Source: Macrostomum lignano
Taxonomy: Eukaryota
Reading direction: 5' to 3'
DNA: 34,381 nucleotides
Assembly (NCBI GenBank): GCA_002269645.1
Contig: NIVC01003230.1
Span: 1 to 34,381, forward strand
Under the pieces are notes generated by a model, which was not told the DNA's origin, made no database searches, and worked only from the letters and a program-made list of their open reading frames with translations. Positions 823 to 26,228 of the stretch are shown here, in pieces; within the stretch, counting starts at the first letter, position 1; each line of letters begins with the position of its first letter. Position numbers and translations under genes: made by a program.

Positions 823-3800
823 ATGCCAAAAGCCAATCCAGCAAAGATTTAGTCAACAAATATTTTTCAAAAGGCGTCTCATTTCAAGACAAAAGTAATT
901 ACTAAGAGAAGCATGTAAACAAAAGTTAACACCGACCCTGGTCACCTGGGAAGCTATGAAAAACAGTTGGAAATCATCAATCAATTAGAATCCAACCAGT
1001 ATGCGCCTATAAAAATTCTGCAAAGGAACACCAAGAGAGGAGTCGCAACTTAGTTAACAAATACGAAACTCTCACTGGTGAAAAAGCAAAGTACCCACAA
1101 AATAAGCAGGAACAAGAGAAATTAGAGCAATTAATCCATTTAAAAGAGTCGGAGCTTGCCATTGAAGAGATTAATTTTGCACAGAGAAGTTTACAGAACA
1201 TTACATAGAGTACACAATCCCAATAAACGGCACCAACGGTACCACCGCAAACATCTACGACTATAAAGACAGCATCCAATCAGTTGTTGATCACACACTC
1301 AAAACACGCAAGACTTTAAACTACAGATATCATTCAAGATTGCGTTTTATATGCCTGCAAAACCCACTGAGCATCTCGAGTATTACATGACAACAAAGGC
1401 AAAGCCATTCACCCCACAGACACACTGGATCCTTTCCTTCAAGATGTCAATAAGAAAATTGAAGCGTTTACATCCAGAGGTTCCGGATGGGTCGTGGGAG
1501 GGATTCAAAGAGCGACTGTCATGGTCATGAAATATGACCCACTTAAAGCCTCCTCTTATATAGAGCTCCCGCATAAGCTAGCCGGCAAAAAAGCTTGCAT
1601 AAATGTTAAAAATAAAGACAATTGCTGTGCTCTATGGGCAGTTCTTTCTGCACTTTTTAGTGTCCTCACCACCCCGAAAGAACCTCAAATTATCAAAATT
1701 ATTTCAACTACTATCTCATCGAATGCGAAAAGAAGGGAATCAGGTTTGACAAAGGAGGCTTGGCGATCTCTCAGATCCCAAAGCTAGAAGAAGTGTTTAA
1801 TAACAAAATTAGAATCACAGTCTTTGAGTGGAGTGAAAAAACTGAGAAAGTTCAACCGGTCAGATGTAGCAAAGACGTTTTAGATCCGAGGGGAAAAGGC
1901 GGACTGAAGTGGATCTTCTAGTGATTGGTAATTTACTAGAGGAGGCTCACTATGTTTGGATTAAAGATCTTTCAAGACTCATTCACAAGCAGTTGAATAA
2001 TCATCACGAGGCTGTTGCCATCTGCCGCTTGTGCCTTAAGCATTACAGTGGACCTGAACGCTTTGAAAAGCTAACAGAGCATGAATTATCATGCGAGGAT
2101 CACCCGACAAACTGCTCTCTTCCTTCAGCTGAAGAGAAGTATCTCCGGTTTAAGAACTATCACAAGATGGAGAAGCTCCCATTTGTTGTATATGCTGATT
2201 TCGAATGCTCAATCATGCCGGAAACTCAAAAACAAACTCAAACTCAAAAACATGTCCCCAATTCAGTAGCATATGCCTTTATTAATACAAAAGGACTTGT
2301 TGAGTATAATTATTTCTTTGGAGAGCAGTGTGTGGAGCAGTTTATTGCCAGAATGTTAGAGTTGCAAAAAGTGATTAGCACCCTTCAACCTGTTCCAATA
2401 ATGATGACTGAGGAGGATGAAAGTAATTTCCTATCAGCAACTCATTGCCACATCTGCAGGAAACATTTAACTTGCACTAATATTAAAAACCCCACCGTTA
2501 GGGACCACTGCCACTTTACTGGGAAATTTAGAGGTGCAGCGCATAACACCTGTAATCTAAAGCTAAAATCGAACATTCATGATCTAACGATATTTTGTCA
2601 CAACGCAAAGAACTATGACATGCATTTAATAGTTGAAAAAATCGGCATGATTCCAGACATACACCTTGATTGCATCGCAGAGAACAAGGAGAAGTTTAAG
2701 TGTGTTGATATTAAACAGGATAATTCGGGTACAGGTAAAATAAGACTGAAGGATTCATATCAATTTCTAGCTGCCAGTCTAGACGAACTAAGCAAGAATC
2801 TAAAAGATGAACAATGTACATATACAAAGATGTTTGCAAGTAAAATTAACAACACTGATGAATCATTTAAACTCCTGAGAACCAAAGGCTTCTACCCCTA
2901 TGAAAATATTACTGGGTATCACGTATTTGAAGAAGGTTTACCACCACAGGAGAAGTTCTTTTCAAAGCTAACAGACTCTGGAATCTCTGACAAAGACTAT
3001 GAGCACGCGAAGCATGTCTATAGTTACTTTAATTGTCAAAACTTCTTCCAGTATCACCTGCTTTACCTCTTCACAGATGTGTTTCTGCTGGCTGATGTGT
3101 TTGAAACCTTCAGATGCACCTGGTACACAGCATATGGCCTCGATCCAGCACATTATGTGTCTCTGCCTGCCACTAGCTGGGAATCTTTGCTTAAAATGAA
3201 ATGGGATCAAGATCCAGATTGGTACATTGAACTTCTTACAGACATTGACATGTACAATTTTGTCGAATCGTCAAAGCGAGGGGGAATCTCAATTTGTGTT
3301 AACAGGTATGCAAAAGCAAACAATCCCTACATTGAATCTTACAATAAGGAGCAACCCTCAAACTACATTACTTACTTGGACGCTAATAATCTCTACGGGT
3401 GGGCGATGAGTCAAGATCTTCCAGTTAGAGATTTTCGATGGCTACCCTCATCAGAATTAAATGGGACTTTTCATTGGCTGCCATTTATGAGGTTGATGTT
3501 TACATTCCACCAGAGCTTCACGACTATTTCTCTGACTTTCCACCCTTCCCAGAGAACATCAAGTGCCGAAAATAATCGAAACTCCCAATGATAATAATGG
3601 AACTTGGCACCTGTCAGGAACAGAAAAAGAACATACAGAGAAACTAACACAGAATCTAAACAACAAGACACGTTACAAAATCCATTACAAACTGCTTCAG
3701 TATTTTATCTCACTTGGTTGCAGGGTCACCAAAGTTCACCGGGCTCTTACATTTACAGAGGAAGCGTGGATGAAACCCTACATTGATAAGAACACCCAGT

Positions 3801-4657
3801 TTAGGACCAAAGCAACCAACGACTTTGACAAGAACCTCTTTAAGTTGGCCAACAACTCTGTCTATGGCAAGACTCTTGAGAATGAGCGGAAAAGAACAAA
3901 CCTGAAACTTGTTACCTCATCAGAGCCTGATGTTATTCAGGCAAATATGTCAAAGCCAACATTCAAAGAACTCCATATCTTTAATAGCTACTTAGGTGTG
4001 ATCATATTTTACAAAACCAAGGTGACGCTGCGCAAGCCGATCTATACAGGTGTCACTGTTCTCGACGAATCAAAACGTCTGATGTACCAATTCTTCTATG
4101 GCATGAAGCAGCAGTACAAGGATAAAATGAAACTCTTGTACACTGACACAGACAGTTTTATTATGGACATTCAAACAGAAGACATTTATCAGGACATGCT
4201 GCAGCAAAAAGAGTTGTTTGACTTGTCTGAGTATGATAAATCTTTCAGGACGCTGAATGGTGATCAAGTGTTTGACGCCACTAACAAGAAAGTGATTGGG
4301 AAAATGAAGGACGAGATTGCTGGTGACATAATCACTGAATTCATTGGGTTGAGAGCAAAGTCCTATTTTATAAAATGTGAGTCGTCAGACCCAATAAAAA
4401 AATCAAAGGGAATTCCGAAACGTGTGGTTAGGAAGGAAATTAATGAAGCTGAATACAGAGACGCCTTGAATTGCAACAAAAAGACATCACATGAGTTCTC
4501 AAAGCTACAATCTAAAAACCATATTATTCACACAATTCAGCAAAAGAAGATTGGACTGTCAGGTGCAGATAACAAGAGATTCATTTTTGATGACAATATC
4601 AACAGTCTACCGTTCGGGCATTGGAGGTTAGGTTTAGGAGGTGGATATTGGGTTTAG
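823..4657 (+). CDS. pPolB: Protein-primed family B DNA polymerase (terminal-protein region, exonuclease, polymerase), broken by several -1 frameshifts
   Basis: N-terminal Polinton motifs FTSRGSGW, YDPLKASSYIELP, KACINVKNKD and IPKLE. ExoI VYADFE, ExoII HNAKNYD, ExoIII YLFTDV. Pol A YLDANNLYGWAM, B KLANNSVYGK, C LYTDTDS. The missing EVDVYIPPELHDYFSDFPPFPE segment lies in a third frame at 3489-3555. The start at 823 (AAAAATG CCA AAA) is inferred. Confidence 0.95.
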
Positions 4658-4690: not shown

Positions 4691-5092
4691 ATGACAACAA
4701 ATAACTTTCTTGAAGATTTGGCTAACGAACTGGAAATCCCAAACTTTAGAGGAATATTTATGAGGGACACTCTGCCTGATTTTCCTCTAAGAAAGGAATG
4801 CGGCATCATGAACTTTGACACCACCGATAAGCCAGGATCTCATTGGGTTTGCTGGGTGATTGATCCCGATCGCAAGCACAAGTGTTATTACTTCGATAGC
4901 TATGGGACGGCAGTACCAGAAGAGCTAAGAAATTATATGAAGGGAAAAAATAATAAAAAAATTTATCGCTCAGACTTTATTCTCCAAGGTCTTAGCAGTG
5001 ATATTTGCGGTGAGCTGTGCATGACTGTTTTGTATGCAATGACCAAAACACGAAAGACCTACAAGGAAATTATTCTTGGCTGTGTTTCATAG
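4691..5092 (+). CDS. Adenain-like (C5/Ulp1-fold) maturation cysteine protease
   Basis: 133 aa with GSHWVCW (His), YFDSYG (Asp) and LQ...ICGELC (oxyanion Gln, catalytic Cys); A-rich start context. Confidence 0.93.
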   Translation: MTTNNFLEDLANELEIPNFRGIFMRDTLPDFPLRKECGIMNFDTTDKPGSHWVCWVIDPDRKHKCYYFDSYGTAVPEELRNYMKGKNNKKIYRSDFILQGLSSDICGELCMTVLYAMTKTRKTYKEIILGCVS

Positions 5093-5096: not shown

Positions 5097-5753
5097 TCAT
5101 TGTGCATTTCTCGTTGTACTTCTCGTTGTCCTTCTTTCCACATAATGTTGAAAAACTTTCTCGAGTTCATTTCTCAGCTGACTCATGTCATCAGTACCGA
5201 CCATGTTCAAGTTCATTCGAATTGATTGTTCATAAAGATCCTGAATGGTTTTGAACTCATCCTCTGAAATGAACTTATCCTCGATTGCCCTTGAAATGTA
5301 CCCTATGATTGATGTGTGCACCCCTTTCTCTTTTACTTGCTTCTCCTGTAGCTGCTTTAGTTTTTTTCGCCTGTTTCGCGCTAATGCTCCAGTAATTGCT
5401 GAAATAAGTCCACATGCAGCACCCACAGAGCCGAGCGGGATTGCGATTGGGGCTGTGATGACTGGCAACGTTGAGACAGCTGCAGCAGATCCAGATAGAA
5501 CAGACACAGATCCTAGAATCATATTGCTGTAGTCGAAAAATTTACAGTGGCTTTCATAGCGTTTAATTTTCTTTGTGTTGTGGAAAATATTTTTTTCAAG
5601 ATCATCGCGCATTTTTTGAATCTCCACTAGTCGAAACTGCTGAGAGTTACAAGTAATGACAGGGTAGAGTTTTTGTTGCTCATATTGGGGTGCACTAGGT
5701 GCACTAGGTGTTGTGGGAGCGTTCGGATCATAAAGAGAATTTTGAGCATCCAT
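5097..5753 (-). CDS. Polinton membrane-hairpin protein (probably the GasderminX/PW-type conserved gene)
   Basis: 218 aa: Pro-rich N-terminus (PSAPSAP, LYPVI), coiled coil, a long Gly/Ala-rich hydrophobic segment (ILGSVSVLSGSAAAV...GLISAITGAL), then basic RNRRKKLK. The family name is recalled, not tested. Confidence 0.75.
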   Translation of the reverse strand: MDAQNSLYDPNAPTTPSAPSAPQYEQQKLYPVITCNSQQFRLVEIQKMRDDLEKNIFHNTKKIKRYESHCKFFDYSNMILGSVSVLSGSAAAVSTLPVITAPIAIPLGSVGAACGLISAITGALARNRRKKLKQLQEKQVKEKGVHTSIIGYISRAIEDKFISEDEFKTIQDLYEQSIRMNLNMVGTDDMSQLRNELEKVFQHYVERRTTRSTTRNAQ

Positions 5754-5861: not shown

Positions 5862-6605
5862 CTATTCATTATCTGTGAGCTCCATTCTACGCATGATCTC
5901 AAACAAGTCGGTTGGATCACTTGTTTCCCTTGTGGTCTGTGGTGCCTCTTCAGCGTCAATGTTTTTGAGATTATGCAAGCGTTCAAGACGACCGATTCTT
6001 CTCACCGATTTCTGCCATTCGGTAAAAACTAAATCTACAAAGACTTTATTTGCAGTAATTCTTACTTTGATTTGATCATGCAACGCTGTTGACTGAGTCA
6101 TGAACTCTTCTAAATTCCTCACTTTACATGTGTTGGTTGCGACGTTTTCTTTAATTCTATCATGCAATGCTGTTGACTGGTTCATGAACTCTTCTAAATT
6201 CCTCACTTTAACTGCGTTTGTGAAAACTCCTTCTTCAAGAATGCGCATCCGCCTATCAATGGAGTTTCTCAGAAGATTAATTGTCGATGCTAAATTTGTT
6301 CTTAAACCGTTGATTTGCGAGACTATCGAAGTTATTTCTGACCTAAGTTCATTAGTTGCGTTTAACAACGGCACATAAAGCTTATCACTTTCAAACTTCT
6401 GCCTAGCTACTTTAAGCCTGAGATCTTCCATGTTTATCTGTAGCTGGTGCATGGAGCGCTCTAATTGTTTCAGTCTGTTTTTATTCAGTTTGATCTCTGG
6501 GATCTTTTCGTCGCTGTTGATATATCGCCTGTCAAGGATGGATACTTGAGCTGATGTAAGAGCGCTGTTGCCAGAAATGGATTCACCTGCAAAGTTTATC
6601 GACAT
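5862..6605 (-). CDS. Coiled-coil protein with a 28-aa internal tandem duplication; function unknown
   Basis: 247-aa intact ORF with heptad pattern; KVRNLEEFMxQSTALHDxIK occurs twice (84-bp DNA period). Confidence 0.8.
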   Translation of the reverse strand: MSINFAGESISGNSALTSAQVSILDRRYINSDEKIPEIKLNKNRLKQLERSMHQLQINMEDLRLKVARQKFESDKLYVPLLNATNELRSEITSIVSQINGLRTNLASTINLLRNSIDRRMRILEEGVFTNAVKVRNLEEFMNQSTALHDRIKENVATNTCKVRNLEEFMTQSTALHDQIKVRITANKVFVDLVFTEWQKSVRRIGRLERLHNLKNIDAEEAPQTTRETSDPTDLFEIMRRMELTDNE

Positions 6606-6621: not shown

Positions 6622-7422
6622 TTAAATTACAGTTCTTTTTTCTTTGCTGATAATCACAAACTGGTAAGGCTGATTCCACTTGTCATAGCAAAGATTAACG
6701 AATTCCTCTTGTGAAATCTTTCTGCTTGAGTTTTTTGTTGGATTTATGAAATAGGCAGGCGCAATGACCTCATTGTAAAATCTTTTTAACCTGTCCTGTG
6801 GAATGGTTGGAAACAGGAGAATCAGATTGCAGTTCCCACGAATTGTTTTGTTCGGGAGCTCGAACCAGTTCTGTGCAATGTAAATTACATTACAATTGTT
6901 ATGTCGCCCTCTTGTAAAATAGTTTTCTATCTGCTTCTGTGGGCCTGTCATACAATCATCAAAGACGATCAAATGCTTTCTCCCCTTTTCTAGCTCATCT
7001 GGTTGGGGTAGAAGTTTGGTCTTTGGATCAGCCTGTGGATCTCCATAGGTGAACACTTTAATGTTCTGCCATTTTTCATTGTCTTTGAGGTGCTTTGCAT
7101 ATTCGGCAGCTACAATTTCAGGGTTACTGGGAAGGCTCATTTGGTTATTAAAACATGCAATAATGTCCTCTTTGTTCAGCTTGTTTTGAAGCCCTGCAAT
7201 CAGCATTCTATACTCATCTTGATACAGTGTGGGAGAGTAGATGTGCAGAGTGTCATAGTCGATAAATCCAGGTCTAAGAAGCATGTTAAAGACTCTGAAT
7301 GTTTTACCTGAACCTGACGAACCAACAACAATGCATCTGAAGTGACTCGGGATTGACTCATGATGAGAAAACTTAATCTGATTACGCGTCCAGTGAGGAT
7401 TGAAGTCGTTTGAAAAGTCCAT
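6622..7422 (-). CDS. A32/FtsK-like genome packaging ATPase
   Basis: Walker A GSSGSGKT, Walker B LIVFDD, and the A32-type FTRGRHNN motif followed by VIYIAQ. Confidence 0.95.
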   Translation of the reverse strand: MDFSNDFNPHWTRNQIKFSHHESIPSHFRCIVVGSSGSGKTFRVFNMLLRPGFIDYDTLHIYSPTLYQDEYRMLIAGLQNKLNKEDIIACFNNQMSLPSNPEIVAAEYAKHLKDNEKWQNIKVFTYGDPQADPKTKLLPQPDELEKGRKHLIVFDDCMTGPQKQIENYFTRGRHNNCNVIYIAQNWFELPNKTIRGNCNLILLFPTIPQDRLKRFYNEVIAPAYFINPTKNSSRKISQEEFVNLCYDKWNQPYQFVIISKEKRTVI

Positions 7423-7464: not shown

Positions 7465-7653
7465 TTAGATGTGTCATTTTGGGACTTAGATGTGTCATTT
7501 TGGGACTTAGATGTGTCATTTTGGGACTTAGATGTGTCATTTTGGGACTTAGATGTGTCATTTTGGTACTTAATTGTGTCATTTTGGGACTTAGATGTGT
7601 CATTTTGGGACTTAGATGTGTCATTTTGGGACTTAGATGTGTCATTTTGAGAC
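7465..7653. repeat. 9 x 21-bp tandem array inside the element
   Basis: Unit TTAGATGTGTCATTTTGGGAC, head to tail; copies 5, 6 and 9 carry substitutions. Confidence 0.97.
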
Positions 7654-7696
7654 TAGTCTTGTACCTTTACATTTCTTGTACCCTCGGAAAGTACCT

Positions 7697-8083
7697 TTAG
7701 TCAAATTTGAAACCACTTCCTTTTTTAATGCTTGCTCTCATCTTCTCATAGACTGCAGGGTCCACACTGTCTGGGTTTGGGGCCAGCGGGGCCAGCGGAG
7801 CCAGAGGTTGAATCTCTTGTTTAGGTGTTACAGTATCCTTTATCTTTTTGGCTGCTGTGGCTACACTGCCAGCCGCTTCGGCAACGTTCTTGATGTTCTC
7901 TTTGTTCTCTCCAATGACCTTAAAAATCTTAGCCCCCTGAGCGATCAAATCGGCAAGGCCATTCCCGGAGCGCTCTTTTCTTGGATAGTGGCCTGCAGGG
8001 AAAAGTCCAGATCCGCGTTTAATAAGATTAAGTTCCTCTTTGTCATAGTATTTGTCAATGTCTTTTTCGAAAATAAGTGGCAT
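7697..8083 (-). CDS. Small basic putative virion core protein (128 aa, MPLIFEK...KKGSGFKFD)
   Basis: It has its own AAAAATG at 8083, 16 nt after the restored stop of the upstream gene, and contains three (K/R)xGxG motifs. It is the C-terminal part of the 528-aa ORF-track entry. Confidence 0.7.
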   Translation of the reverse strand: MPLIFEKDIDKYYDKEELNLIKRGSGLFPAGHYPRKERSGNGLADLIAQGAKIFKVIGENKENIKNVAEAAGSVATAAKKIKDTVTPKQEIQPLAPLAPLAPNPDSVDPAVYEKMRASIKKGSGFKFD

Positions 8084-8099
8084 TTTTACTTGAAATAAA

Positions 8100-9283
8100 T
8101 TATTTTTTGTTGAACCGCGAAAGCAGAAGCTCTCTCGCCCTTTTATCGATGTATTTTCTCTCAAGCATTTTGTCCAGGATGTTGACAAATTCTTTTCTAT
8201 TCTCTCTTTCATTCCGGTCTTTGCCGCTCCTAGAAGAACCGCTACTCGCTTGTAGATTTCAGCTATTCCTTTTCCAGATTTGGGTGGTTGGTCTTGGGGT
8301 TGTGGAGTTGGTTGGGCTTGTGGCTGCTGGGGAGGTGATCCAAAAGACTGCTCACTTTCAGAGATGGAACTGTCATGTGGCGCCTGTCTTTGTTGAGGTG
8401 TGAAAACTCTTTGCTTGATTCTGTTCATTCGATCTGGAGAGTGTTGTTCTAAGTGTTGCCAGTCTGTTGGGTGATCATTTTTATACTTAGCTACTTGAGT
8501 CGGATCTGCATTTTCCAGTTGCCTGAGTACTTGTTCTTCTGTGAAATGTTGCTGCTGTTGTGGCGGTTGCTGTTGTTGCTGTTGTTGTTGTTGTTGTTGT
8601 CTTATGACCTCTTCCTGATCCGGCAAACCAAACCATTGTTTAAAGTATTTGTATTTTCTAAATCTGTTCAAGACAATCCCGTTTTCATGTAAAATTTTCA
8701 AAACACCGTTGTTCTTGAGCATATCTATATCCCTATCGAGAGCAAAGGTAACAAGATCTTTGTAATTTTTGAGCTGCTTTTTAGACGTATTCTCTAGATT
8801 TTTAGTCATGTAATCAAGTAAAGTTTGAGTGAACTGGATTCTTTTAGTTTTTGCGCCTTTATTGATTGAAATGTTTTCCTTTGTCACTTCAATGTTGTAA
8901 TCCACCGGTTCCTTGGTAATTTCTTTTCGCCAGGCGCTAATTCCAAAAATATATTTTCCATCATCCACTACGGGGCCAAAAAAGTTATCCGTCACTTTCA
9001 TCTGCACCGGTTGTCCTGGTTCCTGAGCCTGTGGTTGTCCTGGTGAAGATGGGATTTTACCCAATGTGTTTTGCAAGTGGCTCTCTTGAATATCATCAAC
9101 TGCTTCCTTCACAGTGTCGAGGTTTTTCTTCGCTTCTGTGTATCCGGGTTTGTGAAATTCGGTGGCTGCTTGGACAAACTCATTGTAGGATTGTTGCTCC
9201 TTATTTATTAGCCCGGTAACTCGTTTCTCTGCTTGTGCTAGCTTCTCCAATTCAGATATCTGCTGTGTACTTTTTCGCTTCAT
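8100..9283 (-). CDS. Polinton conserved protein with polyQ/PQ linker and a C-terminal RxxxLLG...GN helix (PZ/Oncoid-like); 1-nt deletion near 8213
   Basis: Restoring one A in ACCGGAAT gives ...KRVAVLLGAAKTGNERENRKEFVNILDKMLERKYIDKRARELLLSRFNKK* with TAA at 8102-8100. This matches the RL..L.GS..AGN C-terminal pattern I recall from Polinton proteins. Confidence 0.7.
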
Positions 9284-9313: not shown

Positions 9314-10600
9314 ATGAACGACCCACTGACACCAGTTTTCTACAAAATTAACAAGCCTATTTTGAGTGATGATAGCACAATCAAAGCGACTCAGGTAAGA
9401 GTTCCCAGTCAGGAAAATCAGAATGAAACTAATCTTGGTCCTGGCCAAACACTGACATTTACATACAATGGATGTTCGTCTTTGGTTAGTGTGCACAGTC
9501 TTAAGAGCGGCTTCCATATGACATTTCAATTCAAGACAAAGGGTGGTGCGGATGCGGCTCGTGCTAACGTTGACAAGCATGATGCGGATGTGGCTCTGAT
9601 CAGTAACTTTTGGGCGTACATGTTCAAGGAGTTTAGTGTATCGAATGGGAGCACTGAGTTGGAGCGAATCGCCAACTTTGGAATTGTCTATGACGCTCAT
9701 TGTTTGATCGAGAATCCTGATTTTATTCAATTGGGAAGTGGTGCGGGTTTTATTGCAGACGAAAAAGAAGGAGATATCAATGACAGTGGCTATAAAAAGA
9801 GGAAGAAGAGATACAACTATGCATTGCAAGGTGCAGATGATGCTGCTAAAAACCCGCTGTATCGGTCTGTTGATGTATTTGTACCACTGAGATTCATGAG
9901 TGGATTCTGTAATACATTTAATCGACTGACTAGTAACTTTAGCTACACCTTTAGGATGACTAGAGATGATCGCAGTAGAGTGTTGTGGACTGGGGCGGAT
10001 CACACAAGGATGGAGGTGAAGCTAACCGGAATCGAGCTGTATTTGGAAGTCATTGAGCCAAAGACTGCACTAAAAGCGGATTATCTTAAGGCAATAGAGA
10101 AGGACATTGATGTTGCATACACGGCCTACATGTGTCGAGATGAGCGAAACGAAACTAGAACAAACATCTGCATTAAAGAGGGATCATGCAGCAATCCACG
10201 GTATATTATTATTAACATGAGAAACCCAAATAGCATTATACGCTACATGCATGGAGACGTGCGGTCCATTCAGCATGAAATCAGTGATAATCTTTACCCT
10301 GCACTGCCACAAAATGGAGATTTCAGTCAGAACAAGATTAGCAAATTTTACAGCGAGTTGGTCGACTTGGCTGTGAAAGAGAACAACGGAATTGCTATCA
10401 CTGCTCTTCAATATGGAACTCTATATCCAATGTTTGGCGCTGATGTGTCTGCCAGACAAATGCCTACTGATAACAGCCCTGTGAATATCGTGACTAACAT
10501 TGAGAGGACTGTCGCAACACCCGTGGACCTGTACATTATCTATGCATTTGAGAGGAAGGTGAAGCTTAACATGATCAACAATTCATCCAGTAAAGTTTAA
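9314..10600 (+). CDS. Major capsid protein (double jelly-roll, hexon-like)
   Basis: Intact 428-aa ORF, rich in predicted beta-strands, with an N-terminus like Polinton MCPs (PILSDDSTI...). Size and position next to the penton fit. The fold is inferred. Confidence 0.82.
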   Translation: MNDPLTPVFYKINKPILSDDSTIKATQVRVPSQENQNETNLGPGQTLTFTYNGCSSLVSVHSLKSGFHMTFQFKTKGGADAARANVDKHDADVALISNFWAYMFKEFSVSNGSTELERIANFGIVYDAHCLIENPDFIQLGSGAGFIADEKEGDINDSGYKKRKKRYNYALQGADDAAKNPLYRSVDVFVPLRFMSGFCNTFNRLTSNFSYTFRMTRDDRSRVLWTGADHTRMEVKLTGIELYLEVIEPKTALKADYLKAIEKDIDVAYTAYMCRDERNETRTNICIKEGSCSNPRYIIINMRNPNSIIRYMHGDVRSIQHEISDNLYPALPQNGDFSQNKISKFYSELVDLAVKENNGIAITALQYGTLYPMFGADVSARQMPTDNSPVNIVTNIERTVATPVDLYIIYAFERKVKLNMINNSSSKV

Positions 10601-10625: not shown

Positions 10626-11489
10626 ATGGAAGCTATAGCCGAAAGACTAAACAATATTATTTCGCACTCCAAGGAGAGCATTCCTATTACAATAACTGGG
10701 CGGATTAATGACTCAAACGGGATATTTGTTCAAAAATTAGAGCAGGCGATTAGCCTGGATCCAGGTGCTAATTACCATGTCTATCTTAACGACTTCACTG
10801 GTTGGTCAAACGTTCCCAATGTGATGGCAGCAAATAATAAGTTTTATTACAAATGGAAAGGTGCAGCAGCAGACCCTGTGGTATTCCATGTGAGCACGCA
10901 AAGTGTGGATACCTACAATAACTTTCTAGAAAACGTCTTTACTAAAAGAGGCCATTTCGAGACACCTGATGCGAGTAAGCCAGAGAAGAAACTGTTCCCT
11001 GTCAAACTAACCTATGATCTCACTGTAATGAGAGTGGTCATGCAAGTTCACAAAGATGCGGAGGTTGAGTTTAAAGATGACACTTGGTATAGGGAATTGG
11101 GATTCGTGAAGAAAGTTTATAAGGCAGAATCCACAGCGCGGACTGTCACTCAAGCATCGGGGGCCGTTAGCATGGCCCGGGAAAGTGTACGCGGTTTGTT
11201 CTTAGCACCCAATATAGCAGACATTGTAAAGGGTTTGAATATTCTAATCAGAAGCAATCTCAGTCTTGATTGGGTATTTAAGGGAAAGCGAACGAATATT
11301 TTGTACAACATCTCCAACTCTGTTGCTGGAGGACAGATGGTGGTAGAGAAACCAAATCCAGTGAAAAGAGTTGTATTGAGTAATAAAGAGATTCACGAGA
11401 TTGTGCTACAGTTTGAGACTGAAGATGGGATGGGCGTTGATTTTAATGGGGAAGAGTTTGTATTGACGTTGATCATTGAAAGAATGTAA
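10626..11489 (+). CDS. Minor capsid protein (penton, single jelly-roll)
   Basis: Typical Polinton penton C-terminus LQFETEDGMGVDFNGEEFVLTLII and internal NILIRSNL. The ATG at 10626 in AAAAAAATG context is preferred to the TTG at 10611. Confidence 0.85.
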   Translation: MEAIAERLNNIISHSKESIPITITGRINDSNGIFVQKLEQAISLDPGANYHVYLNDFTGWSNVPNVMAANNKFYYKWKGAAADPVVFHVSTQSVDTYNNFLENVFTKRGHFETPDASKPEKKLFPVKLTYDLTVMRVVMQVHKDAEVEFKDDTWYRELGFVKKVYKAESTARTVTQASGAVSMARESVRGLFLAPNIADIVKGLNILIRSNLSLDWVFKGKRTNILYNISNSVAGGQMVVEKPNPVKRVVLSNKEIHEIVLQFETEDGMGVDFNGEEFVLTLIIERM

Positions 11490-11739: not shown

Positions 11740-12274
11740 AGAAAATTTAATTTTTTTTCAAAGGGTAAGGACCCTGGGTTAGGGGGTTTAAAGTTTTAGG
11801 GATCTGGTTTCATGTTGCGAATTGAATGTGGGGAGAAGAATGCAGATTGTTTTCTGATTGTTTCGAAGATGCTATGGGTGGATGTCAGTGGATTATGTCA
11901 GTGTCAGTGAGCATAACAGGTGTCAGTGGACCCATATTCCCATATTCTGTCAGTCATAATATGGATGGATTTAATGGGATTAAAGTTTTCGGATCAAGTG
12001 CAACCCCTCCCCTTTTTCAAGATTCTGTCGGGATAATATAGATAGATTTAATGGGATTATGGAGGACGTTTTGTGAGCGAGTGCGACCCCCCTTTTTTTC
12101 TGATTCTGTCAGGGATAATATGGATGGATTTAATGGGATTATGGAGGAGGTTTTTGGAGCAGGTGCGACCCCCCTTTTTTTCTGATTCTGTCAGGGATAA
12201 TATGGATGGATTTAATGGGATTATGGAGGAGGTGAAAAATTTTGTCCCAGAAGCCCCCTCATGACATCTACTCT
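11740..12274. repeat. Candidate right terminal inverted repeat containing about 3.5 x 80-bp direct repeats
   Basis: Non-coding. Units start ATTCTGTC at 11944, 12022, 12103 and 12185. The minus strand begins (AG)AGTAGATGTCATGAGGGGG. The partner TIR is not in the window. Confidence 0.55.
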
Positions 12275-13905: not shown

Positions 13906-16900
13906 CGATCCGAATGGAAGACGACGGCGAGGAGCCTCTGAGCGACGGCTCCAGCGATGACAGAGGCTCGGAGCGGGAGGGGGAGCTGCCACAGAATGGC
14001 TTGCGGACTAATGAGGCAGACAGGTGCGCCATTCTGTACGATAAGCAGAACCAGGTGAGTGACATTGACTATAAGTAGAAATTATGGATTGCTAATCTAG
14101 CTAACAGGCAGAGGAACAGACTGGATTGCTAATCTAGCTAACAGGCAGAGGAATAGAGTGGATTGCTAATCTAGCTAACAGGCAGAGGAATAAATGGATT
14201 GCTAATCTAGCTAACAGGCAGAGGAATAAATGAATTGCTAATCTAGCTAACAGGCAGAGGAATAAATGGATTGCTAATCTAGCTAACAGGCAGAGGAATA
14301 AATGGATTGCTAATCTAGCTAACAGGCAGAGGAACAGACTGGATTGCTTATCTAGCTAACATCTAGCTAACAGGCAGAGGAATAAATGGATTGCTAATCT
14401 AGCTAACAGGCAGAGGAACAGACTGGATTGCTTATCTAGCTAACATCCAGCTAACAGGCAGAGGAACAGAATGGATTGCTAATCTAGCTAACATCTAGCT
14501 AACAGGCAGAGGAACAGAATGGATTGCTAATCTAGCTAACAGGCAGATAACAGAGTGGATTGCTAATTTAGCCAGCAGGCAGAGGAGAACAGAATGGATT
14601 GCTAATCTAGCTAACAGGCAGAGGAATAAATGGATTGCTAATCTAGCTAACAGGCAGAGGAATAAATGGATTGCTAATCTAGCTAACAGGCAGAGGAACA
14701 GACTGGATTGCTAATCTAGTCAGCAGGCAGAGGAACAGAGTGGATTGCTAATCTAGTCAGCAGGCAGAGGAGAACAGAGTGGATTGCTAATCTAGCTAAC
14801 AGGCAAAGGAGAACAGAGTGGATTGCTAATCTAGCCAGCAGGCAGAGGAGAACAGAGTGGATTGCTAATCTAGCTAACAGGCAAAGGAGAACAGAGTGGA
14901 TTGCTAATCTAGCCAGCAGGCAGAGGAGAACAGAGTGGATTGCTAATCTAGCTAACAGGCAGAGGAATAGAGTGGATTGCTAATCTAGCTAACAGGCAAA
15001 GGAGAACAGAGTGGATTGCTAATCTAGCTAACAGGCAGATAACAGAGTGGATTGCTAATCTAGCTAACAGGCAAAGGAGAACAGAGTGGATTGCTAATCT
15101 AGCCAGCAGGCAGAGGAGAACAGAGTGGATTGCTAATCTAGCTAACAGGCAAAGGAGAACAGAGTGGATTGCTAATCTAGCCAGCAGGCAAAGGAGAACA
15201 GAGTGGATTGCTAATCTAGCTAACAGGCAAAGGAGAACAGAGTGGATTGCTAATCTAGCTAACAGGCAAAGGAGAACAGAGTGGATTGCTAATCTAGCCA
15301 GCAGGCAGAGGAGAACAGAGTGGATTGCTAATCTAGCTAACAGGCAAAGGAGAACAGAGTGGATTGCTAATCTAGCTAACAGGCAGATAACAGAGTGGAT
15401 TGCTAATCTAGCTAACAGGCATAGGAGAACAGAGTGGATTGCTAATCTAGCTAACAGGCAAAGGAGAACAGAGTGGATTGCTAATCTAGCTAACAGGCAG
15501 AGGAATAGAGTGGATTGCTAATCTAGCTAACAGGCAAAGGAGAACAGAGTGGATTGCTAATCTAGCTAACAGGCAAAGGAGAACAGAGTGGATTGCTAAT
15601 CTAGCTAACAGGCAGATAACAGAGTGGATTGCTAATCTAGCTAACAGGCAAAGGAGAACAGAGTGGATTGCTAATCTAGTCAGCAGGCAGAGGAACAGAG
15701 TGGATTGCTAATCTAGTCAGCAGGCAGAGGAACAGAGTGGATTGCTAATCTAGTCAGCAGGCAGAGGAACAGAGTGGATTGCTAATCTAGTCAGCAGGCA
15801 GAGAACAGAGTGGATTGCTAATCTAACTAACAGGCAAAGGAGAACAGAGTGGATTGCTAATCTAGCCAGCAGACAGAGGAGAACAGAGTGGATTGCTAAT
15901 CTAGCTAACAGGCAAAGGAGAACAGAGTGGATTGCTAATCTAGCCAGCAGGCAGAGGAGAACAGAGTGGATTGCTAATCTAGCTAACAGGCAGATAACAG
16001 AGTGGATTGCTAATCTAGCTAACAGGCAAAGGAGAACAGAGTGGATTGCTAATCTAGTCAGCAGGCAGAGGAACAGAGTGGATTGCTAATCTAGTCAGCA
16101 GGCAGAGGAACAGAGTGGATTGCTAATCTAGTCAGCAGGCAGAGGAACAGAGTGGATTGCTAATCTAGTCAGCAGGCAGAGAACAGAGTGGATTGCTAAT
16201 CCAGCTAACAGGCAAAGGAGAACAGAGTGGATTGCTAATCTAGCCAGCAGGCAGAGGAGAGCAGAGTGGATTGCTAATCTAGCTAACAGGCAAAGGAGAA
16301 CAGAGTGGATTGCTAATCTAGCCAGCAGGCAGAGAAGAACAGAGTGGATTGCTAATCTAGCCAGCAGGCAGAGATAAACAGAGTGGATTGCTAATCTAGC
16401 CAGCAGGCAGAGAAGAACAGAATGGATTGCTAATCTAGCCAACAGGCAAAGGAGAACAGAGTGGATTGCTAATCTAGCCAGCAGGCAGAGAAGAACAGAG
16501 TGGATTGCCAATCTAGCCAGCAGGCAGAGAAGAACAGAGTGGATTGCTAATCTAGCTTACAGGCAGAGGAATAGAGTGGATTGCTAATCTAGCTAACAGG
16601 CAAAGGAGAACAGAGTGGATTGCTAATCTAGCTAACAGGCAGATAACAGAGTGGATTGCTAATCTAGCTAACAGGCAAAGGAGAACAGAGTAGATTGCTA
16701 ATCTAGCCAGCAGGCAGAGAAGAACAGAGTGGATTGCTAATCTAGCTAACAGGCAAAGGAGAACAGAGTGGATTGCTAATCTAGCTAACAGGCAGAGGAA
16801 CAGAGTGGATTGCTAATCTAGCCAGCAGGCAGAGGAGAACAGAGTGGATTGCTAATCTAGCTAACAGGCAAAGGAGAACAGAGTGGATTGCTAATCTAGC

Positions 16901-19268
16901 TAACAGGCAGATAACAGAGTGGATTGCTAATCTAGCTAACAGGCAAAGGAGAACAGAGTGGATTGCTAATCTAGCCAGCAGGCAGAGGAGAGCAGAGTAG
17001 ATTGCTAATCTAGCTAACAGGCAAAGGAGAACAGAGTGGATTGCTAATCTAGCCAGCAGGCAGAGGAGAACAGAGTGGATTGCTAATCTAGCTAACAGGC
17101 AAAGGAGAACAGAGTGGATTGCTAATCTAGCTAACAGGCAGATAACAGAGTGGATTGCTAATCTAGCTAACAGGCAAAGGAGAACAGAGTGGGTTGCTAA
17201 TCTAGCTAACAGGCAAAGGAGAACAGAGTGGATTGCTAATCTAGCTAACAGGCAAAGGAGAACAGAGTGGATTGCTAATCTAGCTAACAGGCAGAGGAAT
17301 AGAGTGGATTGCTAATCTAGCTAACAGGCAGAGGAGAACAGAGTGGATTGCTAATCTAGCTAACAGGCAGATAACAGAGTGGATTGCTAATTTAGCCAGC
17401 AGGCAGAGGAGAACAGAATGGATTGCTAATCTAGCTAACAGGCAAAGGAGAACAGAGTGGATTGCTAATCTAGCTAACAGGCAGATAACAGAGTGGATTG
17501 CTAATTTAGCCAGCAGGCAGAGGAGAACAGAATGGATTGCTAATCTAGCCAACAGGCAAAGGAGAACAGAGTGGATTGCTAATCTAGCCAGCAGGCAGAG
17601 AAGAACAGAATGGATTGCTAATCTAGCTAACAGGCAAAGGAGAACAGAGTAGATTGCTAATCTAGCCAGCAGGCAGAGAAGAACAGAGTGGATTGCTAAT
17701 CTAGCCAACAGGCAGAGAAGAACAGAGTGGATTGCTAATCTAGCCAGCAGGCAGAGGAGAACAGAGTGGATTGCTAATCTAGCTAACAGGCAAAGGAGAA
17801 CAGAGTGGATTGCTAATCTAGCCAGCAGGCAGAGGAGAACAGAGTGGATTGCTAATCTAGCTAACAGGCAAAGGAGAACAGAGTGGATTGCTAATCTAGC
17901 TAACAGGCAAAGGAGAACAGAGTGGATTGCTAATCTAGCTAACAGGCAGAGGAACAGAGTGGATTGCTAATCTAGCTAACAGGCAAAGGAGAACAGAGTG
18001 GATTGCTAATCTAGCCAGCAGGCAGAGGAGAACAGAGTGGATTGCTAATCTAGCTAACAGGCAAAGGAGAACAGAGTGGATTACTAATCTAGCTAACAGG
18101 CAGATAACAGAGTGGATTGCTAATCTAGCTAACAGGCAAAGGAGAACAGAGTGGATTGCTAATCTAGCTAACAGGCAAAGGAGAACAGAGTGGATTGCTA
18201 ATCTAGCCAGCAGGCAGAGGAAAACAGAGTGGATTGCTAATCTAGCTAACAGGCAGAGGAATAGAGTGGATTGCTAATCTAGCTAACAGGCAAAGGAGAA
18301 CAGAGTGGATTGCTAATCTAGCTAACAGGCAAAGGAGAACAGAGTGGATTGCTAATCTAGTCAGCAGGCAGAGGAACAGAGTGGATTGCTAATCTAGTCA
18401 GCAGGCAGAGAACAGAGTGGATTGCTAATCTAGCTAACAGGCAAAGGAGAACAGAGTGGATTGCTAATCTAGCCAGCAGGCAGAGGAGAGCAGAGTGGAT
18501 TGCTAATCTAGCTAACAGGCAAAGGAGAACAGAGTGGATTGCTAATCTAGCCAGCAGGCAGAGGAGAACAGAGTGGATTGCTAATCTAGCTAACAGGCAA
18601 AGGAGAACAGAGTGGATTGCTAATCTAGCCAGCAGGCAGAGGAGAACAGAGTGGATTGCTAATCTAGCTAACAGGCAAAGGAGAACAGAGTGGATTGCTA
18701 ATCTAGCTAACAGGCAAAGGAGAACAGAGTGGATTGCTAATCTAGTCAGCAGGCAGAGGAGAACAGGCAACGCCAGACACACCCTGCGCTACGCATGCTC
18801 CTACCATAGCGCATTCTCGAAGGCAAGCTGGACCCTCGCGGCCAACCGGGCGACCGCCTCGCCAGCCTCTGCCTGAGCAGGCCGGCTTTTGTAGTCCGGT
18901 CCCTCCGAGAAGTCCTGGAGCCCGGCGAGCTCAGCACGGCCTGGCGCAGCTCCAAGGGCAAGGAGGCCTCCTTCAGCTGCTACAACAGAAACGTGCTGGT
19001 CGGCGTCAAGCGGCTGCAGCTCGGCGGGGTGACGGCCCGCAGCGAGGACGTTCGGCTGTATTCGGTTGGCGAGGACCCGGGCTCCCTGACAGAGCGCGAT
19101 AGCCCGGCGGGCTACCATGAGGCCTATTTCACCCGGGCCGACTTCGAGGACGATGAGGAGCAGCACGAGCTGGCCAGGGCCGCGGTGGCGATGGCAGCGA
19201 AGGAGGCGACGTCCATGCGAGGTCAGCGGCAGCCGTCGAGTTCCGTTATCACGGCGAAGCGGACTTGA
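13906..19268 (+). CDS. Spliced host gene of unknown function: exon 13906-14054 (ATG 13914), 4755-nt intron, exon 18810-19268
   Basis: Acceptor TTTTCTGCAACAG|, donor CAG|GTGAGT and acceptor CTCCTACCATAG| join in phase 0: MEDDGEEPLSD...LYDKQNQ|RILEGKLDPRGQPGDRLASL...VITAKRT*. Codons are GC3-rich. Confidence 0.65.
14085..18766. repeat. About 4.7-kb minisatellite with a 36-39-bp unit (intronic)
   Basis: Consensus TGGATTGCTAATCTAGCTAACAGGCAAAGGAGAACAGAG, with variants clustered in blocks. Confidence 0.98.
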
Positions 19269-20069
19269 CAATCCAACCGCTCTACTTTTAGTAGAGGGTC
19301 GAAAGCATTTTCTAAGCGCATTATTGTATTAACATGAAAATTTCTAATCATTTCGGCTGCGACTAGAGGCTCTACTCTAAGTAGCATCTTGTGCTCATGT
19401 GTTTATAGTATGAAAAATTGCAATTGCTAAGGCAAATCTGCATTCATTGTTGTTTCTATTTATTTTCATAGCACTCTTTTAAACACCTTTGCGATTCGCT
19501 GCGTTCAGACTAAAAGCGGGAAATTTTTTCTCCGCCTGTGCTGAGCTGATCAATAATTAATTCGGTTATTGATGGCGTCTGAGTGGAGACTGTGCTGACG
19601 AATGCAATGCAGGATGCTGGGCTCAGGCCCTATCACAGCCTCCATCCGTGATCGAAATCAATCAGCTCTAATCAAAGAAAGATGGAGAGAGCGGGCGGGA
19701 TATGGCGGGCCACGCAGCTGCAACTTGGGGGGGGATAACGGCCGGCCTCAATATGGGATTCAGAAAAGAAGGGCCGGCCCCGCGAGCACATCGAGGGAAG
19801 TGGGTGTAGAGACACGCGGGAACAGCGGATTCGGGATAATTATCCTCAGCGTATCGATTCGACAGGCATCGATCCTCTGCTGTCCCCTCCCTGAGCTCTG
19901 CTCTGCATGGCGACTGGACCGGCCGATAATGACGGCGAGGCCTCTGGCATCATCAAAGGTGCTCTCTCTCTCTCTGCCCCTCCATCTCAGCTGCTTTGAT
20001 CAGCTGTCTCCCTAAAATGAGGCTGTTCCTATGTATATTCTTGTAAATCTATCGTACCGACCATGCTCA

Positions 20070-20490
20070 TTACGATACAATACATATCGGTAGTTACAAT
20101 CAAGTTTTAAACTATTTGGCTCTCCAAATCTCTACCCTATTCTCTCTGTTTAGTGATGTTTAATAAGATACATATCGGTAGTTATAATCGAGTTTTGGAC
20201 CATTTCCCTTTCACAATCTCTACCCCATTTTCTCTTTAGTGTTGTTTATTACGATACATATCGGTAGTTACAATAGAGTTTTGGACTATTTGGCTCTCTT
20301 AATCTCTACCCGATTCTCACTTCAGTGATGTTGATTACGATACATATCGGTAGATACAATAGAGTTTAGGACTATTTGGCTCTCCTAATCTCTACCCGAT
20401 TCTCTCTCTCTTGTGATGTTTTTACGATACATATCGGTAGTTATAATCAATTCTTAGACCGTTCCCTTTCCTAATCTCTCCCCGAGTCTT
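20070..20490. repeat. Diverged tandem repeat, about 5 x 86-88 bp
   Basis: Recurrent ATACATATCGGTAG(T/A)TA(C/T)AAT...ATCTCT(A/C)CCC... Confidence 0.9.
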
Positions 20491-20982
20491 TCCTAATTTA
20501 AATTTCGGGTAGATTCAGAAATCCAGCTTTGTCCTTCACCCTGTGTGAGCGTTGAAATGCTTGCTGAACAGAGCCTGCCCCCTGCCGCTAACCAAGCTGC
20601 CCAAGGAAATCTATTCATCTAAATTCAACCGAGACCAAACGGCATTACCTACTTAGCCTTGCGGCCGGAATTTTCTGGCTGCCGCATCGCATCGGTATGC
20701 AAATTTTTATCCCATTTAAGGTGTCAGCTTTTGACGAATCGAAAACCGCTCCTAAGACGATGAGCTGAATTTTCCTTCCCGCTCCCAGTGTGCCTCGATA
20801 CCAGATACTTAATCCCATAATTCGCCAGCTTTCAGTTGTTGATTGCATCGGCTGAAATTCCGGACAGCTGTCCGACTGTCCGCCTGTCCTTCCCCGTCAT
20901 ATCAAAGAGTTGAAAATCTGCTGGGTTGACGCAAAATGCCTGCTGCAACAGATCCTGCAGCTGTGTGCATTGACAGCTAGGA

Positions 20983-22487
20983 CTGTCTCTGCTCTGTCCC
21001 CTGCTGTCTGTCCTCTGTCCCCTGCTGTCTGTCCTCTATCCCCTGCTGTCTGTCCTCTGTCCCCTGCTGTCTGTCCTCTGTCCCCTGCTGTCTGTCCTCT
21101 GTCCCCTGCTGTCTGTCCTCTGTCCCCTGCTGTCTGTCCTCTGTCCCCTGCTGTCTGTCCTCTGTCCCCTGCTGTCTGTCCTCTGTCCCCTGCTGTCTGT
21201 CCTCTGTCCCCTGCTGTCTGTGTCTTCTGCTGTCTCTGTCCCCTGCTGTCTCTGTCCCCTGCTGTCTCTGTCCCTGCTGTCTGCCCTCTGTCCCCTGCTG
21301 TCTCTCCTCTGTCCCCTGCTGTCTCTCTTCTGTCCCCTGCTGTCTGTCCTCTGTCCCCTGCTGTCTGTACTCTGTCCCCTGCTGTCTGTCCTCTGTCCCC
21401 TGCTGTCTGTCCTCTGTCCCCTGCTGTCTGTCCTCTGTCCCCTGCTGTCTGTCCTCTGTCCCCTGCTGTCTGTCCTCTGTCCCCTGCTGTCTGTCCTCTG
21501 TCCCCTGCTGTCTGTCCTCTGTCCCCTGCTGTCTGTGTCTTCTGCTGTCTCTGTCCCCTGCTGTCTCTGTCCCCTGCTGTCTCTGTCCCTGCTGTCTGCC
21601 CTCTGTCCCCTGCTGTCTCTCCTCTGTCCCCTGCTGTCTCTCTTCTGTCCCCTGCTGTCTGTCCTCTGTCCCCTGCTGTCTGTCCTCTGTCCCCTGCTGT
21701 CTCTCTTCTGTCCCCTGCTGTCTGTCCTCTGTCCCCTGCTGTCTGTCCTCTGTCCCCTGCTGTCTGTCCTCTGTCCCCTGCTGTCTGTCCTCTGTCCCCT
21801 GCTGTCTGTCCTCTGTCCCCTGCTGTCTGTCCTCTGTCCCCTGCTGTCTGTGTCTTCTGCTGTCTCTGTCCCCTGCTGTCTCTGTCCCCTGCTGTCTCTG
21901 TCCCTGCTGTCTGCCCTCTGTCCCCTGCTGTCTCTCCTCTGTCCCCTGCTGTCTCTCTTCTGTCCCCTGCTGTCTGTCCTCTGTCCCCTGCTGTCTCTGT
22001 CCCCTGCTGTCTCTGTCCCCTGCTGTCTCTGTCCCCTGCTGTCTCTGTCCCTGCTGTCTGCCCTCTGTCCCCTGCTGTCTCTCTTCTGTCCCCTGCTGTC
22101 TCTCCTCTGTCCCCTGCTGTCTCTGCCCCTGCTGTCTCTGCCCCTGCTGTCTCTGCCCTGCTGTCTGTCCTCTGTCCCCTGCTGTCTCTCCTCTGTCCCT
22201 GCTGTCTGTCCTCTGTCCCCTGCTGTCTCTGCCCCTGCTGTCTCTCCTCTGTCCCCTGCTGTCTCTCTTCTGTCCCCTGCTGTCTCTGTCCCCTGCTGTC
22301 TCTGTCCCCTGCTGTCTCTCCTCTGTCCCCTGCTGTCTCTGTCCCCTGCTGTCTCTGTCCCCTGCTGTCTCTGTCCCCTGCTGTCTCTGTCCCCTGCTGT
22401 CTCTGTCCCCTGATGTCTCTCCTCTGTCCCTGCTGTCTCTGCCCCTGCTGTCTCTGCCCCTGCTGTCTCGCCTCTGTCCCCTGCTGT
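20983..22487. repeat. 21-bp pyrimidine-rich minisatellite with a 315-bp higher-order repeat
   Basis: Unit CTGTCCCCTGCTGTCTGTCCT; the variant marker TGTCTTCTGC occurs at 21221, 21536 and 21851. Confidence 0.97.
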
Positions 22488-23184
22488 TTTAAGCAAAGCG
22501 GAATCCATTTAATCGAATTGTAACTCCATTACACAATGTATTTTATCAACAAAACTAAATACCGTCTGTAACACAGTCTGTAACACGGTAAGAGATAAAC
22601 CGCAAAGAGGAACGAAATCTGACAAAGATATTTGCGAGAAAATAATTAGAAAAAATAATCGAAAATGATTAGTCAGGTTCAGCGGCAACAGAGAATGGCG
22701 GCCCAACAGAGGATACAGTGCTGTGAACTACTAGCGCTATTCACTCTCACTCCGACACAGTCACTCACAGCTCTCTAGATTGCCAACTCGCCCACTTTGC
22801 CACATGAATAAATAATTTATTGTCAATCAACCTCTAAGCTCTCACCTCTCCTATATCCAGCTTCCCCATGCGCCTTCCACTCCGCCAGCACTTCATTTTG
22901 CTTCAGAGAGAAAAAATGAGTTAGAGAAGGGGAGAGAAGTTCAGCTTGACTGACTTTGACGCAGAGAGGGAGTGAACTGCTGAAAAAATCTGCCAGAATT
23001 CCGTCCACGCGAGGGTTATAAAGCCTCTCCACTTACTGCTGCTCAGAGTGAGCTCAGGGCGCGCGGGATTCCGCAGGCTCTGCTGGGTGAGCACAGGCAA
23101 CTCCGCCCACAGCCCTCCCCCTCCCGCTATTGTAGACCCGCTTTCAAACCCGGAGGGCTGAGCTGTCATTCAAATAATAGCCAC

Positions 23185-23779
23185 CCGCCACCAGGGAGGT
23201 GAGAGGCAGGTGAGCAGAGTCGCCACCAGGGAGGTGAGAGGCAGGTGAGCAGAGCCGCCACCAGGGAGGTGAGAGGCAGGTGGGCAGAGCCGCCACCAGG
23301 GAGGTGAGAGGCAGGTGAGCAGAGAGGGCAGAGCCGCCACCAGGGAGGTGAGAGGCAGGTGAGCAGAGAGAGGGCAGAGCCGCCACCAGGGAGGTGAGAG
23401 GCAGGTGAGCAGAGAGGGCAGAGCCGCCACCAGGGAGGTGAGAGGCAGGTGAGCAGAGAGGGCAGAGCCGCCACCAGGGAGGTGAGAGGCAGGTGAGCAG
23501 AGAGAGGGCAGAGCCGCCACCAGGGAGGTGAGAGGCAGGTGAGCAGAGAGAGGGCAGAGCCGCCACCAGGGAGGTGAGAGGCAGGTGAGCAGAGAGAGGG
23601 CAGAGCCGCCACCAGGGAGGTGAGAGGCAGGTGAGCAGAGAGAGGGCAGAGCCGCCACCAGGGAGGTGAGAGGCAGGTGAGCAGAGAGAGGGCAGAGCCG
23701 CCACCAGGGAGGTGAGAGGCAGGTGAGCAGAGAGAGGGCAGAGCCGCCACCAGGGAGGTGAGAGGCAGGTGAGCAGAGG
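23185..23779. repeat. 36-46-bp G-rich minisatellite
   Basis: Unit CAGAGCCGCCACCAGGGAGGTGAGAGGCAGGTGAG(CAGAGAGAGGG). Confidence 0.96.
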
Positions 23780-24227
23780 CCAGAGCCCATTGACCTTCAT
23801 AGCAAACGGGCCACTTACATGTAGTTTCTTTAGTCAAAACCGGCTTCATTGCAACTAGCCAGCCTAAAAAAGAATTAGAAATCATTTTTAATATACATAT
23901 TGCAAATTTCAATACTCAGTACTAACCTCTGTTAGTAGTAGCTAATTCAAAGCATCAATTAGCCACACACTGAATAATATCCGCGAGTTAGATAGAGACA
24001 GGAAGTGAATTGGGGAGAAAAGGTAGGACAGTGAGTGGGATAAATTACTAATGACGAGAAAATTAACAGAGTCGTAGCGGAAGTAACTGTGAACGGATTA
24101 AAATGGGATCCCGTTCGGTTGTGAGGGTGAAACAAAATACCCCTATAGAAGATGGACCAGCACAAGTGTAAATATAGAGTGATCAAGGGAGTTGCGACAT
24201 GACTGGCAGGTAAATAACGGGGGTAGG

Positions 24228-25861: not shown

Positions 25862-26228
25862 CACTCTCCCTCTCTTACATTCTTCAGCTCTCCCTCTCTC
25901 CCTCACTCTCTCACCCTCTCCCTCTCACCCTCTCTCCTCTCTCTCCTCACTCTCTCACCCTCTCTCCCTCTCACTTTCTCTCCCTCTCACCCTGTATCCC
26001 TCTCACCCTGTATCCTCTCACCCTGTATCCCTCTCACCCTGTATCCCTCACCCTGTATCCCTCTCACCCTGTATCCCTCTCACCCTGTATCCCTCTCACC
26101 CTGTATCCCTCTCACCCTGTATCCCTCTCACCCTGTATCCCTCTCACCCTGTATCCCTCTCACCTTGTATGCCTCTCACCCTTCTTCTACTCTCCCTCTC
26201 CCTCTCCCCTCTCTCCCTCTCTCGCCTT
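25862..26228. repeat. CT-rich tract with a 16-bp repeat (CCCTCTCACCCTGTAT)n
   Basis: Direct reading of the sequence. Confidence 0.93.

Follow-up and report, generated by a model that had tools for sequence, protein, structure and literature searches.

A Maverick/Polinton protein family with conserved late-domain motifs as a candidate ESCRT-recruiting exit adaptor in Macrostomum lignano

A 218-residue protein encoded by an integrated Maverick/Polinton of Macrostomum lignano carries in its N-terminal tail a doubled PSAP and an LYPVI, motifs of the types bound by TSG101 and ALIX, and both motif types are conserved across a large unannotated family. Judged from this comparative evidence, the protein very probably binds the ESCRT machinery through ALIX and TSG101, and the account of its function to which we lean, with modest confidence, is that of an exit adaptor similar to orbivirus NS3: a membrane hairpin that recruits both host proteins so that capsids are released non-lytically in host vesicles. 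Mavericks are widely regarded as integrated, host-switching viruses, and their particles are assumed to be naked. No link of Mavericks or SLATT proteins to ESCRT was found in the literature searched, which lay largely outside subscription journals, and the late-domain reading does not appear in the accessible portions of five related reports (PMC8097293; 10.1101/2024.03.25.586562; 10.1101/2025.02.07.637071; 10.64898/2026.10.13.758929; 10.64898/2026.06.19.733378).

The element and the predicted protein

The window, which is the whole stretch of 34,381 nucleotides analyzed here, begins at the contig edge inside an integrated element, and the target gene sits between the protease and ATPase modules (Table 1). 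A protein-primed DNA polymerase B, rve integrase, adenoviral protease, A32 ATPase, capsid genes, and terminal inverted repeats mark the element as a Maverick/Polinton (adintovirus); here the integrase lies past the left edge of the contig, and its reading comes from sister copies, one of which, on contig C142, spans approximately 16 kb between its inverted repeats. The slot of the target gene, among particle-assembly genes, is unchanged in six of six further copies (seven of seven examined). No envelope gene was recognized on inspection of the element's ORFs of at least 150 aa in sister copies, and the TATAAG box of another Maverick lineage is absent upstream of the target gene. Four read runs whose RNA origin is a guess give even coverage of the entire element, uninformative as to expression.

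Table 1. Coordinates of the target gene, its parts, and the surrounding element
Feature	Position	Strand	Basis or remark
Target ORF, 218 aa	5097..5753	-	Tail with late domains, then a helical hairpin (hydrophobic tip), an acidic loop, and C-terminal helices
PSAPSAP, two overlapping P[ST]AP, TSG101-type, residues 16-22	5688..5708	-	Sequence, duplication, conservation
LYPVI, ALIX-type LYPxL/I, residues 29-33	5655..5669	-	Sequence; relatives
Charged portion of helix 1, residues 37-74, predicted coiled-coil arm	5532..5645	-	AF2 helix 37-94, block pLDDT 81-97
51 uncharged residues 75-125, predicted membrane hairpin, short turn 95-103	5379..5531	-	AF2 model and composition
Basic cluster, residues 126-133	5355..5378	-	K131 kept in at least 90% of family
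Conserved acidic helix-loop-helix, residues 154-167	5253..5294	-	S154, D159, E166 kept in at least 90% of family
Protein-primed DNA polymerase B	1371..4657	+	PF03175 E 1.3e-10; several frames here, broken as assembled
Adenovirus-type cysteine protease, convergent with target	4691..5092	+	PF00770 over cut-off
247-aa coiled-coil protein, upstream neighbor of target	5862..6605	-	ORF
A32-type packaging ATPase	6622..7422	-	PF04665 over cut-off
528-aa protein with GxG motifs, likely capsid-core protein	7697..9283	-	Putative role
Double jelly-roll major capsid protein (MCP)	9314..10600	+	PF21738 E 6.4e-5, under cut-off
Probable minor capsid (penton) protein	10626..11489	+	Follows MCP, size; no Pfam match
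Right terminal inverted repeat; element end near 12272	11745..12272	.	Matches both ends of sister copy on G000:C142
Parvovirus-type PLA2 and rve integrase in sister copies	L110:6361-6867 and L110:5305-6306		PLA2 PF08398 E 2e-13; only copies reaching far enough

Several further features of the locus were observed. The coiled-coil and 528-aa genes show 48-98% identity in pieces between copies and are far more divergent than the target, protease, and ATPase genes, which are mostly above 90%. A scan of 14 element frames gave a single late-domain-like motif besides those of the target, an LYPAL at residue 327 of the major capsid protein, which may be structural. Positions 416-574 hold a short Gly-Gly-hydrophobic peptide ORF, out of frame in this copy, which we take to be cupiennin/pX-like. 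Between the ATPase and 528-aa genes, a 21-bp tandem array of nine copies (7465-7654) gives rise to a spurious 87-aa repeat ORF, and the host DNA to the right of the element (14300-34300) consists mostly of minisatellites with 39-, 21-, 42-, 22-, and 26-bp units.

The earlier note on this DNA had described an ORF with two PSAP motifs and an LYPxI, followed by a coiled coil, a hydrophobic hairpin, and a basic cluster. The ORF and all three motifs are confirmed in place, with PSAP copies at residues 16-19 and 19-22 (the peptide quoted in that note corresponds to residues 8-33), and the remaining parts are borne out by the helix at 37-74, the uncharged stretch at 75-125, and the basic residues 126-133. 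The AlphaFold model of the target (pLDDT 86.5) pairs helices 37-94 and 104-159 as a long hairpin, tipped by the uncharged stretch and followed by two shorter helices, and the model of a second family member has the same plan (pLDDT 93.7). The longest uncharged run has a median of 50 aa in 149 aligned members, and the hairpin of the target is only moderately hydrophobic, with a 19-residue Kyte-Doolittle maximum of 1.81. Both of its flanks are basic, with net charges of +3 and +6 (medians in the family: +3 and +4), and the target protein has no signal peptide; both protein ends are therefore predicted to be cytosolic. Conservation in the family peaks at the acidic helix-loop-helix, whose loop presumably resembles a TerB loop or the latter half of an EF-hand. 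DUF533 matches 5 of 149 members weakly, and the helix-loop-helix is a possible cation sensor. Among the members scanned, no core-specific Pfam family exceeded its cut-off.

Conservation of the motifs in sister copies and relatives

At least 151 matches to the target occur in the 764-Mb genome of the host itself (594 candidates, 150 scored), and 95 of the 150 listed copies were read, namely the 15 best and 80 spread across the list. The tail is out of frame or uncovered in 19 of these, and the remaining 76 all retain LYPxI together with at least one P[ST]AP. Two tail types occur among them, 38 copies each: the first has one to four P[ST]AP in a 9-bp array with interchange of Ser and Thr, and the second mostly has a single PTAP at a different position. 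The second PSAP of the target had been attributed in the earlier note to a 9-bp duplication, and a direct sequence check does find exact copies of the unit GCACTAGGT at 5692-5700 and 5701-5709; the doubling itself is not special, given that the number of P[ST]AP varies from one to four among sister copies. A meaningful role for the doubling was rejected on this count and on the second tail type with its single PTAP. The doubling is thus slippage, whereas the presence of the motif is itself constant among sister copies.

The core could be compared in 87 of the 95 copies, which were ungapped and free of stops (79 distinct). Its pN/pS is 0.25 in this sample, which the choice of high-scoring copies biases towards intact ones, with 0.26 for variants shared by copies and 0.95 for singletons. 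These values fit purifying selection on the core during replication, followed by neutral change or read error.

Eight homologues of 42-54% identity already have the motifs in shuffled order. A profile search extended the family to 550 representatives at E<=0.001 (clusters at 50% identity), 150 of which were listed; motifs were counted in 129 of these, and 21 were dropped for a tail shorter than 8 aa, lack of an initial Met, or a late core match, several of them being nearly tail-less, perhaps truly so. [LIVM]YPx[LIV] is found in 110 of the 129 tails, against a mean of 0.9 and a maximum of 5 in 2000 tail shuffles, and P[ST]AP in 57 (shuffles: mean 0.6, maximum 5). Both motifs occur in 53 tails, with YP first in 30 and PSAP first in 23, and their distance from the core varies from 4 to 50 residues. 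The C-terminal tails, despite a greater summed length, hold no [LIVM]YPx[LIV] and two P[ST]AP. The search profile contained the tail and thus favors motif-bearing hits, a bias that is lessened, though not removed, among the 86 rows that reach significance by the core without the tail (drawn from the same 150 representatives), of which 72 have [LIVM]YPx[LIV] and 37 have P[ST]AP.

The enrichment is confined to the exact chemistry of the motifs. The near-miss P[^ST]AP occurs in 4 of 129 tails against 3.3 expected, YxxPhi without Pro in 17 against 28.9 expected, and Pro directly follows Tyr at 124 of 174 tail tyrosines. PPxY is absent from the target and not enriched in the family (6/129 vs. 3.1 expected). 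Position +3 of the YP motif is Leu in 85 of 118 family motifs, and the target has Ile instead of this canonical Leu; YPxI is reportedly an ALIX ligand as well, according to work on fungal PalA. A FastTree tree of 128 cores, read without branch support, requires no fewer than 32 changes of PSAP state, where shuffled states give a mean of 42 and a minimum of 31. Short linear motifs under selection show just this combination of exact chemistry with free placement and recurrent gain or loss. P[ST]AP is conserved, S/T-specific, and located in a predicted non-helical, presumably cytosolic tail, and the LYPxL-type motif is conserved and position-independent, as is to be expected of late domains of the P(T/S)AP and YPXnL classes.

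These same properties weigh against a reading in which the motifs have nothing to do with ESCRT, with YPxL serving as an AP-adaptor sorting signal or structural strap and PSAP arising from low-complexity drift. YPxI does fit YxxPhi, and the tail has short xAP repeats besides the 9-bp slippage, but enrichment is seen only for Pro at Y+1 and for S/T in PxAP, and the distance to the core varies widely; we consider this reading barely credible.

Conservation among homologues was one of the checks proposed in the earlier note, and its lack, together with a lack of binding or of an ESCRT-dependent phenotype, was named there as what would speak against ESCRT recruitment. Both motifs prove to be conserved family-wide with late-domain-like specificity. 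Because 11 of the 129 tails have neither motif, 72 have no P[ST]AP, and some representatives are near tail-less, the core may nonetheless function without ESCRT handles. A long-branch pair of homologues (P0074 and P0090) lacks both motifs, and the N-terminus of P0090 is metallophosphoesterase-like.

With regard to the distribution of the family, the atlas neighbors of the target are unnamed clusters from viruses and molluscs, and the cluster of the homologue P0162 is 58% viral, with Preplasmiviricota commonest. No loci of distant homologues were found in the viral or metagenome contigs searched, cluster look-ups for these homologues named only one sea-anemone protein, and no phage match to the target was found.

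Host partners, fold, and proposed role

The host encodes a TSG101 UEV (E 7e-39) and the exons of an ALIX V domain, which is split over three exons. From alignment to the human chains, we take the host UEV to retain most residues of the PTAP pocket, with differences at two (Y63H and F142V), and host ALIX to retain the Phe of the LYPxL site. A complex prediction of the host UEV with residues 1-40 of the target, in which both chains were folded without alignment, gave a score of 0.00, which weighs neither for nor against binding. TSG101 UEV (L102-L104) and ALIX V (L096-L098) each occur at three near-identical loci, which suggests duplicated chromosomes or uncollapsed haplotypes.

Late-domain classes, of which there are three, and their partners are taken here as set out in the accessible part of PMC8402826. 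According to the portion available of PMC4880917, putative late domains occur in more than 20 iridovirus proteins, of which three bound partners. Since so few bound, the presence of a motif is weak evidence by itself; conservation is what sets the Maverick motifs apart. ESCRT recruitment, as the earlier note had supposed, is well supported by the comparative evidence, namely conservation, specificity, and the presence of TSG101 UEV and ALIX V in the host.

In the exit reading, the protein would anchor in a membrane via its predicted hydrophobic hairpin with both flanks cytosolic. The V domain of ALIX would bind LYPx[LI] as the main handle, the UEV of TSG101 would bind P[ST]AP as an optional second handle, and ESCRT-III/VPS4 would then cut the neck of a vesicle that encloses capsids, resulting in the vesicle-cloaked egress that the earlier note had envisaged. 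Its most tentative steps are that the cytosolic helices might contact capsids and that the membrane used might be the plasma membrane, the multivesicular body, or the nuclear envelope. The PLA2 protein of the element would serve entry, as in other quasi-enveloped viruses without a fusogen.

The motif evidence fits equally well with an ESCRT adaptor or decoy for other cargo, which would divert surface or immune proteins of the host into multivesicular bodies, remodel the nuclear envelope, or load exosomes with viral RNA or protein while capsids remain uncloaked, and no capsid-binding element has been identified in the target protein. The position of the gene among particle-assembly genes in every copy examined argues against such a role, as does the observation that viral late domains mostly serve release (PMC8402826, accessible part), and we regard it as quite improbable.

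The predicted fold bears on two further alternatives. Viral SLATT proteins, including those of giant viruses, appear as weak rows in both fold searches (E 1e-3 to 0.2), the SLATT_5 profile reaches 27 bits in 1 of 149 members (cut-off 29.5), and the hairpin resembles those of pore formers, with AopB at E 9e-4, sub-cut-off RTX N-terminal hits in 23 of 149 members, and ApoL weakly. The target could thus be a SLATT-like pore that acts in lysis, ion flux, or anti-superinfection defence, its late domains recruiting ESCRT only for shedding or degradation of the pore and thereby timing toxicity; the SLATT proteins of polinton-like viruses have been proposed as lytic-egress or abortive-infection pores (10.64898/2026.10.13.758929, in the part available). 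Two independent ESCRT handles, with LYPxL near-universal, would however exceed the needs of turnover; PPxY, the ubiquitin-ligase handle, is not enriched, and all SLATT models fall below cut-off. This pore is unlikely in our estimation, and it can coexist with the exit reading because NS3 itself is described as viroporin-like in the text accessible to us. The amphipathic hairpin would also suit a virion-packaged entry protein that punctures endosomes, a role put forward for SLATT proteins of cryptophyte polinton-like viruses in the available text of PMC12220804. That proposal relies on the absence of lipase genes, whereas sister copies here have PLA2, and late domains are cytosolic, in a compartment that an entry protein arriving from the lumen would at first not meet. 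Such an entry function is highly doubtful.

If the exit reading is true, quasi-enveloped release would occur in a lineage of double-jelly-roll DNA viruses that persists in the germline as a transposon; it would extend ESCRT-dependent release of this kind from RNA viruses to Preplasmiviricota and allow spread from soma to germline and across species without a fusogen. The reading predicts that the particles occur in fractions of extracellular vesicles, with DNA that is protected from DNase and sensitive to detergent, and that they require host ALIX, TSG101, and VPS4; this makes the exit of Mavericks from cells directly testable. It also gives a testable function to the hitherto unannotated family.

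Comparison with known systems

The best structural matches of both models are invertebrate iridovirus proteins (S6DF61, A0A5B8RH66, and A0A068QKD3; E 1e-6 to 3e-5), which are of similar length, share 15-23% identity with the target, and are functionally uncharacterized. These are probable homologues, for which the present reading serves as a lead. A broader proposal, which we put forward as tentative and short of probable, is that animal Mavericks and probably invertebrate iridoviruses share an NS3-like ALIX/TSG101 exit protein that buds capsids into vesicles, a SLATT-type hairpin turned ESCRT adaptor. The PDB fold searches gave generic BAR, coiled-coil, and helical-bundle rows, and kinship with BAR proteins was rejected given that the best Z of 12.3 lies within the helical background.

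Viral SLATT 2TM proteins share with the target a predicted helical hairpin of two hydrophobic helices and occur in the same virus groups; they are proposed as pores, and ESCRT motifs go unmentioned in the accessible parts of the sources (PMC12220804; 10.64898/2026.10.13.758929; PMC8502044). SLATT profiles do not match the target itself, and SLATT kinship of the family is plausible. The family may correspond to the "SLATT" or Adintoc label on some adintovirus maps (PMC8502044, available part). The same portion of PMC8502044 draws adintovirus GasderminX beside the protease, as the target is, proposes it to be membrane-active, and takes a gasdermin C-terminal-like domain together with a pX-like C-terminus as its definition. 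GasderminX, a first guess from gene position, was dropped on inspection, since the C-terminus of the target is a charged helix without a Gly-hydrophobic peptide; its lack of a pX-like C-terminus makes the identity improbable, and the target is probably a different gene. No gasdermin stands among the listed rows of the PDB fold searches, which carry no weight on a gasdermin fold either way.

In hepatitis A and hepatitis E viruses, non-enveloped capsids leave in host membrane by way of ALIX or TSG101; the former virus has a YPX3L in VP2 (PMC8402826, accessible part). Unlike the target, this RNA virus carries its late-domain motifs in a capsid protein. Hepatitis E virus, also an RNA virus, undergoes TSG101-type membrane-wrapped release through ORF3, a small PSAP-bearing protein of different fold.

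The closest functional parallel is orbivirus NS3, which is approximately 220 aa long, with N-terminal late domains including PSAP, a coiled coil, two membrane helices, and basic clusters beside the membrane, in a capsid virus without a fusogen; the PSAP of bluetongue NS3 is needed for budding (PMC6949946, in the portion available). In contrast to NS3, LYPxL/I is dominant in the target family and PPxY is not enriched, a 9-residue turn without a sequon replaces the glycosylated loop between the membrane helices, and the host replicon is a dsDNA jelly-roll element and not a dsRNA virus. The NS3 profile PF01616 matches a single one of the 149 members, below cut-off (E 0.0022, 18 of the 27 bits required), and Foldseek lists orbivirus NS3 for the second model (E 0.13-0.21), the bluetongue NS3 fragment superposing on the family model with a TM by target of 0.78 and an rmsd of 2.2 (E 0.21). 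Homology aside, this analogy suggests that the target protein likely works as NS3 does.
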